In this document: in pieces, positions 11,896-42,538 of the stretch
Layout: each line of letters begins with the position of its first letter
Position numbering within the stretch: the stretch's first letter is position 1
Assembly: GCA_030059675.1 (NCBI GenBank)
Contig: JANVYQ010000013.1
Location: 1 to 42,538 of the forward strand
Source of the DNA: Candidatus Pelearchaeum maunauluense
GTDB taxonomy: Archaea; Thermoproteota; Nitrososphaeria_A; Caldarchaeales; Caldarchaeaceae
Direction of reading: 5' to 3'
Length of the DNA: 42,538 bases
Program-made: the position numbers and the translations under genes
The notes under the pieces: model-generated
Database searches by the model: none
What the model was told of the DNA's origin: nothing
The model's input: only the letters and a program-made list of their open reading frames with translations

Positions 11896-11996
11896 GGGCC
11901 GGTAGATCAGCGGAAGATCGCCCGCCTTGCACGCGGGAGGTCGCGAGTCAGTCCCTGATGGGGCTGGCCGATAAGGTTCAAATCCCGCCCGGTCCA
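11896..11996 (+). tRNA. tRNA-Ala(TGC) with a 29-nt intron (11946-11974) in the T-stem, position 51/52
   Basis: Acceptor GGGCCGG/CCGGTCC with G3:U70; anticodon arm CCCGC-CTTGCAC-GCGGG. The T-arm GCG|GG-TTCAAAT-CCCGC is restored after removing the intron. BHB-type motif: helix GTCG/CGAT, bulges CG|A and AA|G. Confidence 0.92.
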
Positions 11997-12075: not shown

Positions 12076-12724
12076 TTATCTGACCACCTCAAGTATAGCC
12101 TGCTTCCTGCTAATAGCAAAGCCTACAAGATTTCTGAACCGCTTTATGCTAGCCCTTCTGTAGAATGTATAGTATTATGTTGATAGTCTTTCTACGCCGT
12201 AGTCAGCAGTTTCAAGATAGATAGACTTCAGATGGAGGGGGTTTCCCCAGGCCTAAGGCTCTTCCAAGAGCTCATGGGGGCTTGGGAGGTTCACCCTGAC
12301 AGGTGATGAGGCTGACGAGGGCTCCGATGAACCCATGAGGAGCCCCGAGGTTGATGAATCCCAAGACCTACGTATGCCCATGAAAGACTACGCAGGTCAG
12401 AACCCTTTTGTAACATCTTCTATTGATGGTAAATCGTCGCTTCATTGTTCTTTTGTAAATCTTAGCTTCTATTTCGAGCTTCTTTAGTAACTCGGCTGTA
12501 TATCTAATGATTCTGCAGTTAGCATTTAAAATTCGTATACGTCCAAGATTGGCTGCGTCTTTGGCAACGCTGCCTTCAGCATCTGCTAGTCCTCTTATGA
12601 ACGCGGCCATGCATTCCTTGCAGTGCTCTACGTAAGGCTTAAGCCTCTCTATATCTACAGGCTTCCTCAGCAGCTCGTAAAATTCTCTGCTATATATCTT
12701 GACTATCCATCGCTGAAGACTCAT
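12076..12724 (-). pseudogene. Free-standing LAGLIDADG endonuclease relic: 5'-truncated, interrupted by repeat copy 1, frameshifted
   Basis: AFIRGLADAEGSV motif in the 12368-12724 ORF. The family-like tail YRRASIKRFRNLVGFAISRKQAILEVVR* lies on the far side of the repeat (stop at 12076-12078). Confidence 0.8.
12197..12405 (+). mobile_element. Non-autonomous mini-element, copy 1 (longest; CC...CC bounded; IS607-like)
   Basis: Near-identical to 40005-40175 and 42449-42538 in reverse complement. Removing it plus one CC restores an in-frame TAC AAA AGG CGT AGA AAG in the host gene. Right-end hairpin at 12365-12374/12389-12398. Confidence 0.8.
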
Positions 12725-35047: not shown

Positions 35048-35974
35048 TTATATCGGTATAAACACGGGGCTGTCATCAGACACTATACGGCCACGCTTCT
35101 CCAGGACCTCGTTTAGGTAGGCTGGGATTATGAAGAGCGTTCTATGAAGCTCTGGCGAGTAGAATCTCAGCCCAGAGACTCCCCTTTCTTCTAGGCGTTT
35201 CCTCACCTCCTCCTCGCCCAGCTCACGCGGACTCCCACGCCGCGTAGCTAGAACAAAGCCCCACGCAGAGAGGAATGAGGGAACCCAAACATAATAGGCG
35301 TGGGCATTCCCAAAAACCGACTTTATAGTCCGATAGACCGAGGCGTAGCAGTCAGCGGAGTAGAACGTGGATGTGGCCTGAGTAACTATCACACCATCCC
35401 CGCGGAGTTTGCGCTTTACTATCTCGTAGAACTCGCGCGTATAGAGCAGCGCCGCTGGGCCGCCTTCAATCGGATCTGTCGCATCAACCACTATAACGTC
35501 CAGCGAGTTGTCTGGCTGCGCATCAAGCACGGCCCTGCCGTCGCCTATTACGAGGCGTAGTCTTGGGTTGTCAAAGGAGCCTTGATGAAAACTGCTCAGC
35601 AGGCGTTTACAGAGCTCTATGACCTCCTGGTCTATGTCTATCATCGTGAGGCTCTTGACCGTGTTGTGGCGTAGTATCTCCCTGGCCGTCGCTCCCTCGC
35701 CTCCGCCGATGAGCAGGGCATCCACAGGCCTGGGATGCGTAACCAAGGCTGGGTGGACCAGCGTCTCGTGGTAAATCCACTCATCGGCGGCTGTTGATTG
35801 TATCTGGCCGTCAAGAACGAGGCCCAGCCCATAGTCAAACAACTCAACTACATCAACACGCTGGTATCGCGTCCTGCCAGAGTATAGAACCCTCTTAAGC
35901 CTGTGGAGGACTATCGTATTCTTGGTGCGGCGCTCCTCTAGGAAGAGGGGCGCTATCTCACCCTGGTCCGACAT
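35048..35974 (-). CDS. speE: Polyamine aminopropyltransferase (spermidine synthase family)
   Basis: LVLDGQIQS, DEWIYHETLVHP, LLIGGGEGA and IVVDATDP. Confidence 0.92.
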   Translation of the reverse strand: MSDQGEIAPLFLEERRTKNTIVLHRLKRVLYSGRTRYQRVDVVELFDYGLGLVLDGQIQSTAADEWIYHETLVHPALVTHPRPVDALLIGGGEGATAREILRHNTVKSLTMIDIDQEVIELCKRLLSSFHQGSFDNPRLRLVIGDGRAVLDAQPDNSLDVIVVDATDPIEGGPAALLYTREFYEIVKRKLRGDGVIVTQATSTFYSADCYASVYRTIKSVFGNAHAYYVWVPSFLSAWGFVLATRRGSPRELGEEEVRKRLEERGVSGLRFYSPELHRTLFIIPAYLNEVLEKRGRIVSDDSPVFIPI

Positions 35975-35985
35975 GGCTCCCCCTG

Positions 35986-36375
35986 CTATAGCGCCTCCTG
36001 CTTTATGTCCGCCTCGCTCCGCTCATCCATGAGGCCGCGCCTAATCTCCATCACATTATACCTACGCGGGTTGAACTCCTGCAAGATTACGTTAAACGCC
36101 TTCCAGGGGTCCAGCGAGACGCCGCAGGTGAAGATATCAACAGCGGCGTAGCCGTGCTCTGGCCAGGTATGCGCCGAGACGTGGGATTCGGCGATTATGA
36201 TGAGCGAGGAGATTCCTCCAGAGGCGGGGAACTTATACGTATATTCCCCCTTTATCGTGGCTCCCATCGCCTTAGTGGAGCGAAGCAGTATGTTCTTCAC
36301 CTTCTCCTTATCCATCAGCGTCTCGGGCTTGCAGTTGTAAAGCTCCACTAGGAGATGTCGTCCCAGCTCCTTCAT
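35986..36375 (-). CDS. speD: Pyruvoyl S-adenosylmethionine decarboxylase proenzyme
   Basis: GRHLLVELYNC, AESHVSAHTWPE (E-S cleavage site) and VDIFTCG; adjacent to speE. An arginine decarboxylase paralogue is not excluded. Confidence 0.85.
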   Translation of the reverse strand: MKELGRHLLVELYNCKPETLMDKEKVKNILLRSTKAMGATIKGEYTYKFPASGGISSLIIIAESHVSAHTWPEHGYAAVDIFTCGVSLDPWKAFNVILQEFNPRRYNVMEIRRGLMDERSEADIKQEAL

Positions 36376-36711
36376 AGCCCCACCGCCTCCGCGCACAGAA
36401 GGTAGTCTAGGCAGAATGGCGCGTCCCCCATATCACTATTTATGCAGATGCGGTTTGAATTTAAGCATTATGCGCGACGCTCCGCGAGACGCGGCCGCGC
36501 TCAACATACGCCGCGAGCGGAGAAAGCCAGCAACAGCCCAACGCGCAGAAACCCTAACAAGGCATGGCACGCTCATTAGGCCAAGGGCTGTGAAGACTCC
36601 ATGTTGGGTAAAGATGCCCAGAAGCCCTTTCAAGACGTTGGAGCGGGCCATCACCTTTGACTTTTTATTGTTGCTTGGGTATGGAAATGCGGCTATCCTG
36701 GGTGGTTTGGC

Positions 36712-36954
36712 GTGCTTGAGGGGCTTGAGCTAACCCTGCTCGTGGCGAGCGTTCTCTTCGCAATCCTTGCCGTTGAGCAGCCAAGGCTCTATCGGGCCGT
36801 CATGGGGCTGCTCGGCGTAACTGTGGCGGTTGGTGTTCTCTTCTTCCTGCTGGGAGCTTACCAGCTCGCCGTGCTCCAGCTCCTCGTCTATGCTGGCGGG
36901 ATTATCGCGCTCTTCATGATAGTAATAATGCTCACGCGCGGTGTTGAGGAGTGA
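36712..36954 (+). CDS. nuoJ: NADH-quinone oxidoreductase subunit J, N-terminal half
   Basis: Three TM helices with LAVLQLLVYAGGI. Confidence 0.8.
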   Translation: MLEGLELTLLVASVLFAILAVEQPRLYRAVMGLLGVTVAVGVLFFLLGAYQLAVLQLLVYAGGIIALFMIVIMLTRGVEE

Positions 36955-39916: not shown

Positions 39917-40004
39917 GCCTCAGCCGGCAGACCCCTTATATATGCGATTAACTTCCCACCAGCCTTGGGTTTTGTCGGCTCTAAGCCGCTCTTGGCTGCT
40001 CTAA

Positions 40005-40175
40005 GGGTTCTGACCTACGTAGTCTTTCATGGACATACGTAGGTCTTGGGATTCATCAGCCTAGGGCTCCTCATGAGCTCATCGGAGCCCTCATAAGCTC
40101 TTGGAAGAGCCTTAGGCCTGGGGAAACCCCCTCCATTTTAAGTCTATCTATCTTGAAACTGCTGACTACCTACGG
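40005..40175 (-). mobile_element. Non-autonomous mini-element, copy 2
   Basis: Reverse complement of copy 1, lacking a 41-nt internal block and carrying a 4-nt terminal duplication; bounded by GG...GG on the plus strand; perfect 10-bp inverted repeat at 40012-40021/40036-40045. Confidence 0.8.
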
Positions 40176-40225
40176 CAGATACATAAATACCCCAGCCACG
40201 AATAACGATACGAAGGCAGCCAGTC

Positions 40226-42373
40226 ATGACAACCACCCTAGGGAAAGAAGCAACCCTATACCGCGAACAGGACAACAGAATAATATGCACAGCCTGCGCC
40301 CGCTACTGCAGGCTCGCAGACGGCCAGATAGGACTATGCGGAATACGCGGCGTAGTAAACGGAAAACTACACCTCCTAGTCTACGGCAAAGTCATAACAG
40401 GCCACGTAGACCCAATCGAGAAAAAGCCAGTAACACACTACATGCCAGGAACTAAGATCTTCAGCATAGCGACTACTGGCTGCAACTGGCTCTGCCATCC
40501 AGCGGGGACAGAGATACTGATGTCCGACGGAAGTAGGAAGAGGGTCGAGGATATAGTACCCGGAGACGTGTTATGGTCGTATGATATAGATGGCGGTGTG
40601 GCGATTAGGCCAAGCGTAGTTACTCACGTGGGTATGCGAACGGCTAGGTTATTAGAGATTAGGTATGGGAGCAGGGGAGAGGGTAGAATACTTCTTACGG
40701 AGGAACACCCAGTCTATACTAAGAGCGGCTGGAAGATGGCATCAGAGCTAAAGAGTGGCGACTACATAGTGAAAGTCTGGTATCAGAATACACAGAAATC
40801 GAGGGAGAAGCGTAAGATAAGCATCAAGAACGCCGTTTTCCGCTGTAAGGTATGTGGTAAGGAGGTTAAGGGACTAGACGAGTGGAATAAGCATAGGGGA
40901 GAATGCTATACAGAGGGATTAAAGAAGCCAGTCGAGGCAATAAAAGCGGCTAGGCTCAGAATGCTCTTTAATAACCCTATGAAGGATCCCGAAATAGCAC
41001 GTAAAGCCTTAGAGAATAACAAGGCAAGGTTTCTCCACGACCCAACGCATGGGTGGCATAGAAACGCAGAACGCTTAAGGGAGTGGCTCCATAGGCACCC
41101 CTCGGCAGCCCAGCTCAAGCTTTACGAGCTATTAGACGAGCTAGGAATACCCTACGAGCAGGAATACAAAATAATCCCTGAGAGAAAAATAGAGGGTTCT
41201 AAGTCATGCTATATAGCAGACGCAGCAATACCTGAGGCAAAGCTGGTCATAGAGGTGGATGGCTATTGGCATTTCTATAACGAGAGAGTCAAAGAGTACG
41301 ATAGGATTAAGGACGAGACGCTTAGAGCTAACGGCTGGGACGTGCTGCGTATATCAGGCAGCTATCTATTCAATCACCCTGAGGAAGTCAAACAGCTAAT
41401 ACTCAGCCGGGCTATGCGCCCAGTCATGGTCAACAAGAAGAAATGGCTCGTAGTTAAGAGCGTTAAACCGCTAGACCATATGGAGACTGTTTATAGCCTA
41501 GAATGTATACCGCACCACAACTACGTGGCAGACGGGATCTTAGTACATAACTGTCAATATTGCCAGAACTTCGACATAAGCCAGCGGCGCAAGGTTGAGG
41601 GGTTTGATGCCTCGCCTGAGGATGTGGTGAGGCTTGCCAAGCGTTATCGTAGTGAGGGTATCGCATACACGTATAACGAGCCGACCATTTTTATGGAGTA
41701 TGCGCATGATATCGGCGTTATAGCGCGCCGCGAGGGTTTGATTAACATCTTCGTTACGAATGGTTTCTGGACTCCTGACTCGGTTAAGCTTGCCGCAGAT
41801 TTTCTAGATTGCGCTACCGTTGATTTTAAGGGGAACGCCGAGCCTGGTTTTGTTCAGCGCTATATTGGGATTCCAAGCCCTGAGCCAATCTTCCAAACGC
41901 TGCTGGAGATACGGGATAAGACGAAGATACATATTGAGATTACCGACCTGGTTGTTCCGCAGATTGGGGATAATCTAGAGTATGCGCGCCGCCTCGCTAG
42001 GTGGGTTTACGAGAACCTAGGCCCAGATACGCCGATACACTTCCTCCGCTTCCACCCTGATTATAGGTTGATGAACCTGCCTTGGACGCCTGTGGAGACC
42101 CTTGAACGGCACTGGAAGATAGCCAGGGAGGAGGGGCTGCGCTACGTATACGTGGGGAACGTTCCAGGGCATCCTTACGAGAATACCTACTGCCCTGGCT
42201 GTGGTGTTGTCGTGGTTGAGCGGCACGGCTTCGACATAATAAACTGGCGGCTAGACGGGAAGAACCGATGCCTGGAGTGCGGGTATCCAGTGGCGATAAT
42301 AGGCAGGCCGCCTCAAAGATACGTGCCGAGTAGGAGCAGGTTTATCCCAGTCGTATGGGAGAAGCAGCCTTAA
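40226..42373 (+). CDS. AmmeMemoRadiSam-type (PFL-AE-like) radical SAM enzyme containing an intein
   Basis: CTACARYC...GLCGIR, VDPIEKKP, GCNWL[intein]CQYCQN, AYTYNEP, FHPDY and YVYVGNVPGH. Confidence 0.9.
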   Translation: MTTTLGKEATLYREQDNRIICTACARYCRLADGQIGLCGIRGVVNGKLHLLVYGKVITGHVDPIEKKPVTHYMPGTKIFSIATTGCNWLCHPAGTEILMSDGSRKRVEDIVPGDVLWSYDIDGGVAIRPSVVTHVGMRTARLLEIRYGSRGEGRILLTEEHPVYTKSGWKMASELKSGDYIVKVWYQNTQKSREKRKISIKNAVFRCKVCGKEVKGLDEWNKHRGECYTEGLKKPVEAIKAARLRMLFNNPMKDPEIARKALENNKARFLHDPTHGWHRNAERLREWLHRHPSAAQLKLYELLDELGIPYEQEYKIIPERKIEGSKSCYIADAAIPEAKLVIEVDGYWHFYNERVKEYDRIKDETLRANGWDVLRISGSYLFNHPEEVKQLILSRAMRPVMVNKKKWLVVKSVKPLDHMETVYSLECIPHHNYVADGILVHNCQYCQNFDISQRRKVEGFDASPEDVVRLAKRYRSEGIAYTYNEPTIFMEYAHDIGVIARREGLINIFVTNGFWTPDSVKLAADFLDCATVDFKGNAEPGFVQRYIGIPSPEPIFQTLLEIRDKTKIHIEITDLVVPQIGDNLEYARRLARWVYENLGPDTPIHFLRFHPDYRLMNLPWTPVETLERHWKIAREEGLRYVYVGNVPGHPYENTYCPGCGVVVVERHGFDIINWRLDGKNRCLECGYPVAIIGRPPQRYVPSRSRFIPVVWEKQP
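40493..41551 (+). mobile_element. Intein (353 aa) with internal Zn-finger-like segment and Vsr/DUF559-type endonuclease
   Basis: Block A CHPAGTEILMSDG, block B LTEEHPVY, blocks F/G VYSLEC..HHNYVADGILVHN followed by Cys(+1); internal YIADAAI...VIEVDGYWH...D..KDETL...GWDVLRI. Confidence 0.92.
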
Positions 42374-42448
42374 GTTTTAAATTTCTGATTTATGAGGAGA
42401 ATGGATATTTAAACATCTTCAGCATAATACAACCAATCCCCTGTTAAA

Positions 42449-42538
42449 GGGTTCTGACCTGCGTAGTCTTTCATGGGCATACGTAGGTCTTGGGATTCAT
42501 TAGCCTAGGGCTCCTCATGGGTTCATCGGAGCCCTCAT
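42449..42538 (-). mobile_element. Non-autonomous mini-element, copy 3 (cut by the window end)
   Basis: GGGTTCTGACCTGCGTAGTCTTTCATGGGCATACGTAGGTCTTGGGATTCAT... matches copies 1 and 2. Confidence 0.8.

Follow-up and report, generated by a model that had tools for sequence, protein, structure and literature searches.

A probable gene-less derivative of an IS607-type insertion sequence with an omega-RNA-like body and a predicted kink-turn in Candidatus Pelearchaeum maunauluense

The DNA analyzed here (the window) is a stretch of 42,538 nucleotides (nt) of Candidatus Pelearchaeum maunauluense (GenBank assembly GCA_030059675.1, contig JANVYQ010000013.1, positions 1 to 42,538 of the forward strand). 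Positions 12199-12405 (+) of the window are best explained as a mini-element of 207 nt that has lost both genes, resembles a miniature inverted-repeat transposable element (MITE) and is probably a non-autonomous internal-deletion derivative of an insertion sequence (IS) of the IS607 family. Its descent from an IS607-type element, i.e., one comprising a serine-recombinase gene, tnpA, and tnpB, is very probable, and its body is likely to be homologous to the scaffold of a TnpB omega-RNA. An earlier note on this DNA, made from the letters of the window, had read positions 12232-12425 as a stand-alone guide-RNA scaffold with kink-turns (K-turns) and a copy-specific 3' flank, which could program a TnpB encoded elsewhere; the strings it quoted all occur where it placed them, and the repeat it described is real.

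The assembly of the organism (G000; 1.79 Mb, 21 contigs, 94.4% complete) contains approximately 11 copies of the subfamily to which 12199-12405 belongs (subfamily A), as found with blastn and nhmmer. The nhmmer search yielded ten bodies of subfamily A, of which seven are complete (two on contig C15 and one each on C2, C8, C20, C18 and C14) and three partial, together with two copies of a sister subfamily (B), which is approximately 270 nt long and has termini identical to those of subfamily A; an extra left-end fragment of subfamily A lies at C13:1-45. Within the window, a repeat search matched 12199-12408 to 40003-40169 and 42446-42538 on the opposite strand. The window copy 12199-12405 and the copy on C2 represent a long form of approximately 207 nt, and five copies represent a short form of approximately 169 nt, which lacks 41-43 nt. 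The copies are 94-98% alike, with sharp borders and differing flanks. Because three contigs terminate within copies of the mini-element (C8:1-115, C13:1-45 and C15:42449-42538), the repeat is regarded as one reason for the fragmentation of the assembly. The difference between the long and the short form (12274-12314; columns 46-88 of the alignment A2 introduced below) is bordered by the direct repeat GCTNATGAG, and the extra segment resembles a partial duplicate of the preceding TGGAG-GGG...CCC module.

The borders were determined by comparison with G001, a genome of the same genus that gave no match to the element. The empty site corresponding to the C2 copy (G001:C72) reads ...CTTCGCC^GTCCTAAA... 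(a caret marks the junction), and the filled locus in G000 reads ...CTTCGCC[GTAGTCAG...CAGAACCC]GTCCTAAA... (element in brackets); the element therefore starts at G12199 and ends at C12405, with nothing duplicated. A second site (window copy 40005-40173 vs. G001:C20), in which GGC is kept, agrees on the left-end side, the other flank having diverged. All 18 left junctions examined are HGCC, 24 of 27 right ends finish in AACCC, and the flanks of all copies diverge directly after ...CAGAACCC (CCC), which bears out the copy-specific 3' flank. Neither terminal inverted repeats nor a target-site duplication were seen in the alignment of the copies and in the comparison of the filled with the empty site. 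The target HGCC and the terminus ACCC have CC in common and differ at position -3. An identical dinucleotide is thus present at the target and at the element terminus, as in IS607-type crossover, where the bacterial members have GG. IS607 transposases are described as exchanging two bases at a GG core, and the ends of IS607 as bearing several subterminal transposase-binding repeats (PMC6188088); the IS607-type CboIStron, with the transposon-adjacent motif (TAM) TGGG and a scaffold end TCGG, follows the same logic of sharing (bioRxiv 10.1101/2023.11.20.567912). The features of the mini-element are listed in Table 1.

Table 1. Features of the mini-element at 12199-12405 and its further copies, in positions of the window
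Feature	Position	Strand	Remark
Target motif CGCC (TAM-like)	12195-12198	+	Host-owned, outside the element; empty site G001:C72 and 18 left junctions
Left-end remnant, 30 nt, GTAGTCAGCAGTTTCAAGATAGATAGACTT	12199-12228	+	Matches positions 1-31 of the full-length G039:C9 element
Deletion joint	12228/12229	+	Left-end remnant meets body
Body (former tnpB 3' coding end and right end)	12229-12405	+	82% identity to positions 1262-1443 of the G039:C9 element
Optional segment with pseudoknot 5' arm	12274-12314	+	Missing in the short form; 6 of the 20 A2 sequences have gaps at columns 46-88
Pseudoknot 5' arm AGGTTC (consensus GGGTTC)	12287-12292	+	
K-loop hairpin GGGCTCC - GAT - GA - ACCCAT - GA - GGAGCCC	12319-12345	+	
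Right-end terminal hairpin, 10-bp stem GACCTACGTA/TACGCAGGTC	12365-12398	+	One A-C mismatch in the window copy
Element terminus GAACCC	12400-12405	+	Pseudoknot 3' arm; final CC is the putative crossover dinucleotide
Copy-specific flank TTTTGTAACATCTTCTATTG	12406-12425	+	Candidate guide if an RNA is made, by analogy with TnpB biology
Second copy	40005-40173	-	Short form without pseudoknot arm; left end with extra GTAG; target GCC at 40174-40176 (-)
Third copy	42449-42538	-	Right half only, cut off by the contig end

The origin of the mini-element was traced by a DNA search of 61 relatives, which gave matches in 13 genomes (G000 counted). In G039:C9, the two portions of the repeat, 30 nt on the left and approximately 180 nt on the right, stand approximately 1.2 kb apart, in a full element of approximately 1.44 kb that has the same ends as the mini-element and one open reading frame (ORF) of 418 amino acids (aa); its product matches Cas12f1-like_TNB (E 5.3e-13) and OrfB_IS605, the latter with 20.8 bits and thus under the curated cut-off of 30.5. 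The repeat body, in sense to tnpB, equals the last 55 codons of this TnpB plus the right end, and tnpB terminates with its stop codon 14 nt short of the element's end; the region kept by the mini-element codes, in the parent, for the poorly constrained C-terminal tail of TnpB. Further relatives carry full-length or otherwise deleted forms. In G031:C7 (PF00239 match at 35115-35504, then tnpB at 35521-36756) and in G031:C5, a resolvase-type gene (PF00239) stands immediately before the tnpB of this family, and in G031:C5 the recombinase gene has the left end AGCC^GTAGG in front of it; the parent is therefore assigned to the IS607 type. Sister tnpB families are likewise preceded by PF00239 genes (G031:C4, G039:C28, G024:C55 and G031:C22), and a search of 76 genomes of the order yielded PF00239 matches in seven. 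The idea of a guide cassette derived from a transposon end is thus largely borne out, as the body represents the right end of a TnpB element and shows the predicted pseudoknot of an omega-RNA (see below), but the IS607 parent had not been named in the earlier note and a cognate TnpB was not found in G000.

Deletion joints with four different upstream sequences (subfamilies A and B of G000, G039:C131 and G038:C54) fall within approximately 10 nt, just 5' of CAGATGG. This clustering of the joints in the sequences compared suggests that a unit of fixed length, from approximately CAGATGG onward, is what the deletion derivatives keep. As an observation on a related locus, G031:C22:98741-101557 contains a serine-recombinase fragment and a tnpB whose product is 43% identical to the TnpB of G039, and a Y1 transposase gene stands approximately 1 kb past the right end of that element, two transposon types being adjacent there.

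The secondary structure of the body was studied in an alignment (A2) of 20 sequences from six genomes. Because RNAalifold gave a weak consensus for the mixed alignment (-8.12 kcal/mol), a hand-drawn structure of 31 pairs was used; it was derived from the A2 sequences themselves, so that the measure of cells paired, 93.6% compared with 21.6-48.7% after the partners had been slid, is biased in its favor. Five pairs have changed on both sides, two of them in the stem GGGCTCC/GGAGCCC (96.4% paired) and three in the right-end terminal stem. The 10-bp right-end stem of the earlier note is thereby strongly supported, and its GGGCTCC/GGAGCCC helix closing a GATGA...ATGA loop (12319-12345) is supported as a covarying stem, with a motif that recurs in distant tnpB families. 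Regarding its other stems, GCTCT/AGAGC is conserved (96.9% paired), though without double changes, the conservation of GGGG/CCCC is partial (87.5% paired), and TCACC/GGTGA has no comparative support, the central A-U pair being present in 1 of 14 sequences. The same applies to the long-range pairing of CTTGGGA (12281-12287) with TCCCAAG (12359-12365), which is 76.2% paired, without covariation, and lacks the 5' arm in 6 of 20 sequences. A conserved long-range contact is that of (G)GGTTC (12287-12292) with GAACCC (12400-12405), 97.6% paired within the family, in which the GGGTTC partner sits approximately 115 nt upstream of the terminal GAACCC.

This contact recurs among the 3' regions of tnpB at 62 loci, of which 18 belong to the order, 40 to further families of the phylum and 4 to this family. 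The reverse complement of the terminal hexamer was found 74-204 nt upstream in 42 of the 62 regions, in a scan that was restricted to preset terminal motifs, hence biased, and in which a few matches are internal and spurious. Five co-varying versions occur (GGGTTC/GAACCC, GGGGTT/AACCCC, GGGTTT/AAACCC, CCGTTG/CAACGG and CCGTTC/GAACGG), and the upstream partner mostly lies in the loop of a GGGG...CCCC hairpin. By analogy, the predicted pseudoknot agrees in position with that of the ISDra2 omega-RNA, in which positions -5 to -3 pair with -103 to -105, beside the guide (PMC10097598). A sister IS607-type family (loci L073, L076, L078, L110 and L113; genomes G024, G031, G039, G125 and G321) ends in ...GACAACGG and has a GG core, with one left junction (G039:C28) reading ATGGG^TTCGAG; the internal partner in this family is CCGTTG, so that core dinucleotide and pseudoknot vary in concert from one family to the next.

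Only one of the K-turns proposed earlier holds up, namely the kink-loop (K-loop) at 12319-12345, which consists of a canonical (C) stem, a 3-nt bulge, G.A/A.G positions and then a loop, and which a scan under strict rules recovers in 18 of the 20 sequences of the family. Across the family, the bulge reads NAT, its first base being free (codons D, N, H or Y), and the stem varies with compensation (GGGGTTC/GGGCCCC, GGGGTCC/GGGCTCC). Distant tnpB families (30-48% protein identity) have the same motif at the same place with different stems: CCCTC-NAT-GA-N7-GA-GAGGG; CCCACAGC/GCTGTGGG; CCGCC/GGTGG and CCATC/GATGG, in both of which the GA pairs are followed by a second stem (GGCC/GGCC, AGCC/GGCT); and, in family f20, GGAG/CTCT with a 7-bp second stem. 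The non-canonical (NC) stems also compensate across families (GGC/GCC, GGCC/GGCC, AGCC/GGCT).

When the 62 regions were scanned for a stem of at least 5 base pairs (bp), a 3-nt bulge, GA...GA and a stem, 48 contained a match in sense (30 with a NAT bulge) and 12 in antisense (1 with a NAT bulge), compared with 19.3 +/- 3.9 (maximum 29; NAT bulge 1.8 +/- 1.3) in 100 dinucleotide shuffles; these statistics are based on related sequences, and the NAT rule was adopted post hoc. A looser scan (4-bp stem, NAY bulge) gave matches in 56 of 78 sequences, a few of them off the homologous site, with approximately 20 stem classes, all pairing. In every class except one the bulge codon is NAT, even though NAT accounts for 49% of the NAY codons in 15 tnpB ORFs, and the fixed T therefore points to a constraint on RNA. 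Within the limits of related sequences and a post hoc rule, the K-turn thus appears to be conserved by selection on RNA beyond protein coding.

An L7Ae-family gene is present in G000 (C9:42230-42499). We tentatively propose, with less than even confidence, that the K-turn is a built-in, conserved omega-RNA module of IS607-type and related TnpB elements across the Thermoproteota, that L7Ae is a third component of the TnpB ribonucleoprotein (RNP) in archaea, that the mini-elements carry the same predicted L7Ae site, and that the crossover dinucleotide (CC or GG) is tied to the RNA as part of the pseudoknot. The module is predicted to sit between the pseudoknot hairpin and the terminal hairpin, and L7Ae would, for instance, lock the scaffold fold at high temperature. 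SisTnpB1, which belongs to an IS605-type element, is reported to be functional as an RNP purified from E. coli, and L7Ae is therefore not generally needed by archaeal TnpBs. A literature search that did not extend to subscription journals and bioRxiv supplements turned up no description of an omega-RNA with a natural K-turn; the available text of a study of archaeal L7Ae by RNA immunoprecipitation sequencing (PMC5539422) does not mention transposase, IS200, orfB, transposon or insertion, and that of a paper on archaeal circular omega-RNAs (PMC12558985) does not mention L7Ae, k-turn or kink.

Several observations weigh against the interpretation of 12199-12405 as an IS607 derivative with an omega-RNA-like body. 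A single fully precise empty site was found, and five other attempts gave none usable (the window copy 12199-12405 vs. G001 and four other genomes; G039:C9 vs. four congeners; the C8, C20 and C14 copies vs. G001). Departures to G-U (29) are about as frequent as those to A-C (36), and the pair counts do not distinguish strand, or constraint on RNA from constraint on DNA; moreover, both strands fold alike, and only modestly unusually (z = -2.38 for the plus and -2.48 for the minus strand). The assignment to a strand and to RNA consequently rests on the homology to TnpB elements and on the asymmetry of the K-turn signature. Regarding activity, G000 contains no intact cognate tnpB at its completeness of 94.4%, and neither PF00239 (serine recombinase) nor PF01797 (Y1 transposase) gave a match. 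A search of sequencing runs for this DNA yielded no RNA run and one DNA metagenome run, with a word share of 0.06. Subfamily A has lost the TATA-like TTAAATAG box that follows the left end in the full-length and B-subfamily copies, the 5' arm of the pseudoknot is missing in five of the seven complete copies, and the window copy 12199-12405 is mismatched in this arm, in addition to the A-C mismatch in its terminal stem.

The TnpB encoded elsewhere that the earlier note had envisaged was accordingly not found in G000. Among ten candidates, one matched Cas12f1-like_TNB, a truncated ORF of 297 aa whose N-terminal half is gone and whose RuvC triad looks intact; it faces an opposite-strand TnpB N-terminal fragment of 152 aa beside a tRNA gene (locus G000:C13:4544-6276), is unrelated to the repeat, and has no similarity to the repeat downstream of it. 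A tblastn search of G000 with the cognate TnpB returned remnants in mini-elements and one N-terminal fragment of 36% identity only. In G007, where the short form occurs for the only time as a full-length element, tnpB is split. As neither TnpB nor transposase is present in G000, the copies are read as dormant passengers.

Were the machinery supplied, a serine transposase acting in trans would insert the element at HGCC by exchange of the CC dinucleotide, without duplication. The scaffold, if transcribed, would read into the adjacent host flank and so acquire a guide of 16-20 nt; a cognate TnpB, likewise provided in trans, would then cleave the vacated site (HGCC plus flank), repair of which would restore the element, and the occupied site would be spared because the element ends in ACCC and not in HGCC. 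That each copy is at present an active stand-alone guide cassette, transcribed and programming a TnpB encoded elsewhere in the cell, with the mini-elements kept by homing, is unlikely, and we similarly doubt that the window copy yields a working guide in this cell. Such activity would fit the retention of the scaffold features and the finding that the nine copies with a whole K-loop hairpin all keep the GA...GA core and the pairing of the stem. The similarity of the copies (94-98%) and their absence from G001 indicate a fairly recent spread, a full-length copy could be unassembled where contigs break at three copies (the C8, C13 and C15 ends), and Meers et al. (bioRxiv 10.1101/2023.03.14.532601) state that omega-RNAs dependent on TnpB in trans are often encoded by palindrome-associated transposable elements (PATEs). 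Set against this are the absence of an intact cognate TnpB from G000, the loss of the TATA-like box at the left end of subfamily A and the deletion of the pseudoknot arm in most complete copies.

The hairpins and motifs might instead act at the level of DNA only, as sites of binding and synapsis for the serine transposase at the right end, RNA function never having been selected. The equal folding of both strands, the balance of G-U and A-C departures and the subterminal transposase-binding repeats at IS607 ends (PMC6188088) are in keeping with this explanation, which we nevertheless consider improbable, and more so than an active cassette: the K-turn signature is strand-specific (48 vs. 12 of 62 regions, with shuffles at the level given above), the complement of the last six bases is placed where the pseudoknots of omega-RNAs sit, and the retained stretch (134-177 nt) is the former 3' end of tnpB.

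An assignment to the IS200/IS605 family (IS1341 group) was considered and dropped. A PATE of this type, moved as single-stranded DNA by a Y1 (HUH) TnpA, would account for insertion 3' of a fixed short motif without duplication, for the subterminal hairpin at the right end and for the tnpB-only full-length form, and Y1 transposases were found in two of five tested relatives that hold the element, though outside these elements. It is very improbable all the same, as the genes directly upstream of this tnpB family encode serine recombinases and not Y1 transposases, the lone Y1 gene near a relative (G031:C22) lies approximately 1 kb past the right end of the element, the left end has no matching hairpin, and the shared terminal dinucleotide fits exchange by a serine recombinase. 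Hardly credible is an independent, L7Ae-dependent small RNA of the box C/D type that was repeated by chance, for which UGAUGA- and CUGA-like strings and one good K-loop can be cited: in relatives, this stretch forms the coding end of tnpB, GTGATGA, put forward earlier as C-box-like, is private to the window copy 12199-12405, the Rfam search around the element returned only noise at E up to 10 (box C/D models at E 7-9.5 and 8.8-12.8 bits vs. thresholds of 40-45), and a terminal C/D stem is lacking.

The surroundings of the three copies in the window contain further features. An ORF of 118 aa at 12368-12724 (-) encodes a LAGLIDADG_3 homing-endonuclease domain (E 1.1e-12); its last approximately 12 codons and its stop fall within the mini-element, the insertion of which therefore provides the current 3' end of this ORF. 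The Rfam search of the window returned, at gathering score, two tRNAs only, one of them an intron-containing tRNA gene at 11896-11996 (43.8 bits). The homology with G001, the sister genome (97% identity), breaks off within this gene, at 11942, and the DNA downstream of that position may therefore be an integrated or rearranged block. At 40226-42373 (+), between the copies at 40005-40173 and 42449-42538, stands a radical-SAM gene split by an intein with a DUF559/endonuclease insert.

The type of mini-element described here is already known from gene-less IS derivatives with omega-RNAs, i.e., the PATEs of Meers et al., and from IS607-related MITEs in Staphylothermus, and the element itself is an ordinary archaeal, IS607-type addition to those gene-less transposon derivatives that keep a guide-RNA module. 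For the conserved K-turn and for the coupling of the crossover dinucleotide to the pseudoknot, we found no description. A K-turn signature with compensating stems recurs in the guide-RNA region of tnpB genes throughout the phylum, in many families; should L7Ae bind to it, a host protein would be a subunit of the TnpB complexes of archaea, which would bear on the function of TnpB at high temperature and on its use as a compact genome editor. The last six bases of the element contain the recombination dinucleotide, resemble the target motif and covary with an internal site, so that a single short sequence appears to be used at once by the transposase, in the self/non-self discrimination of the nuclease and in the folding of the RNA.

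Compared with members of the IS607 family (IS607, IS1535, ISC1926 and CboIStron), the mini-element agrees in the lack of inverted repeats and of a target duplication, in the putative exchange at a dinucleotide common to the target and the element end, in a TAM and terminus that share their last two bases and differ at -3, and in the order tnpA(Ser)-tnpB of its autonomous relatives; it differs in its core of CC (target HGCC, end ACCC) in place of GG, in the loss of the genes and in its thermophilic archaeal host. The PATEs of Geobacillus stearothermophilus (Meers et al., bioRxiv 10.1101/2023.03.14.532601) are likewise described as gene-less, with the transposon ends and the omega-RNA kept and TnpB and transposase acting in trans, but they are IS200/IS605 elements that have a Y1 transposase and occur together with intact TnpB, whereas the parent of the mini-element is of the IS607 type and its cognate TnpB is absent from the assembly. 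Staphylothermus marinus (PMC2678158), a crenarchaeon, is reported to carry tnpB-only elements of the IS607 family and 14 copies of a related MITE of approximately 260 nt; those MITEs, compared here by description only, resemble the region upstream of the transposase ORF and have inverted repeats, and an RNA scaffold was not considered in the available account. The omega-RNA of ISDra2 (PMC10097598) resembles the predicted scaffold in that it overlaps the 3' end of tnpB, takes as guide the flank past the right end, and has a pseudoknot linking the bases just 5' of the guide to a site approximately 100 nt upstream; the two have no sequence similarity, the scaffold of the mini-element is longer (approximately 177 nt), and the available text on ISDra2 does not mention a kink-turn, the word 'kink' being used once, of a protein. 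The K-turns and K-loops bound by archaeal L7Ae (box C'/D', RNase P RNA and the l7ae leader; PMC3884654, PMC4245976, PMC5539422) share with the mini-element a C stem ending in C-G, a 3-nt bulge, tandem sheared G.A/A.G positions and then a short loop or a second stem. Unlike them, the motif of the mini-element, with its putative binding of L7Ae, lies in a protein-coding, transposon-borne candidate guide-RNA scaffold.

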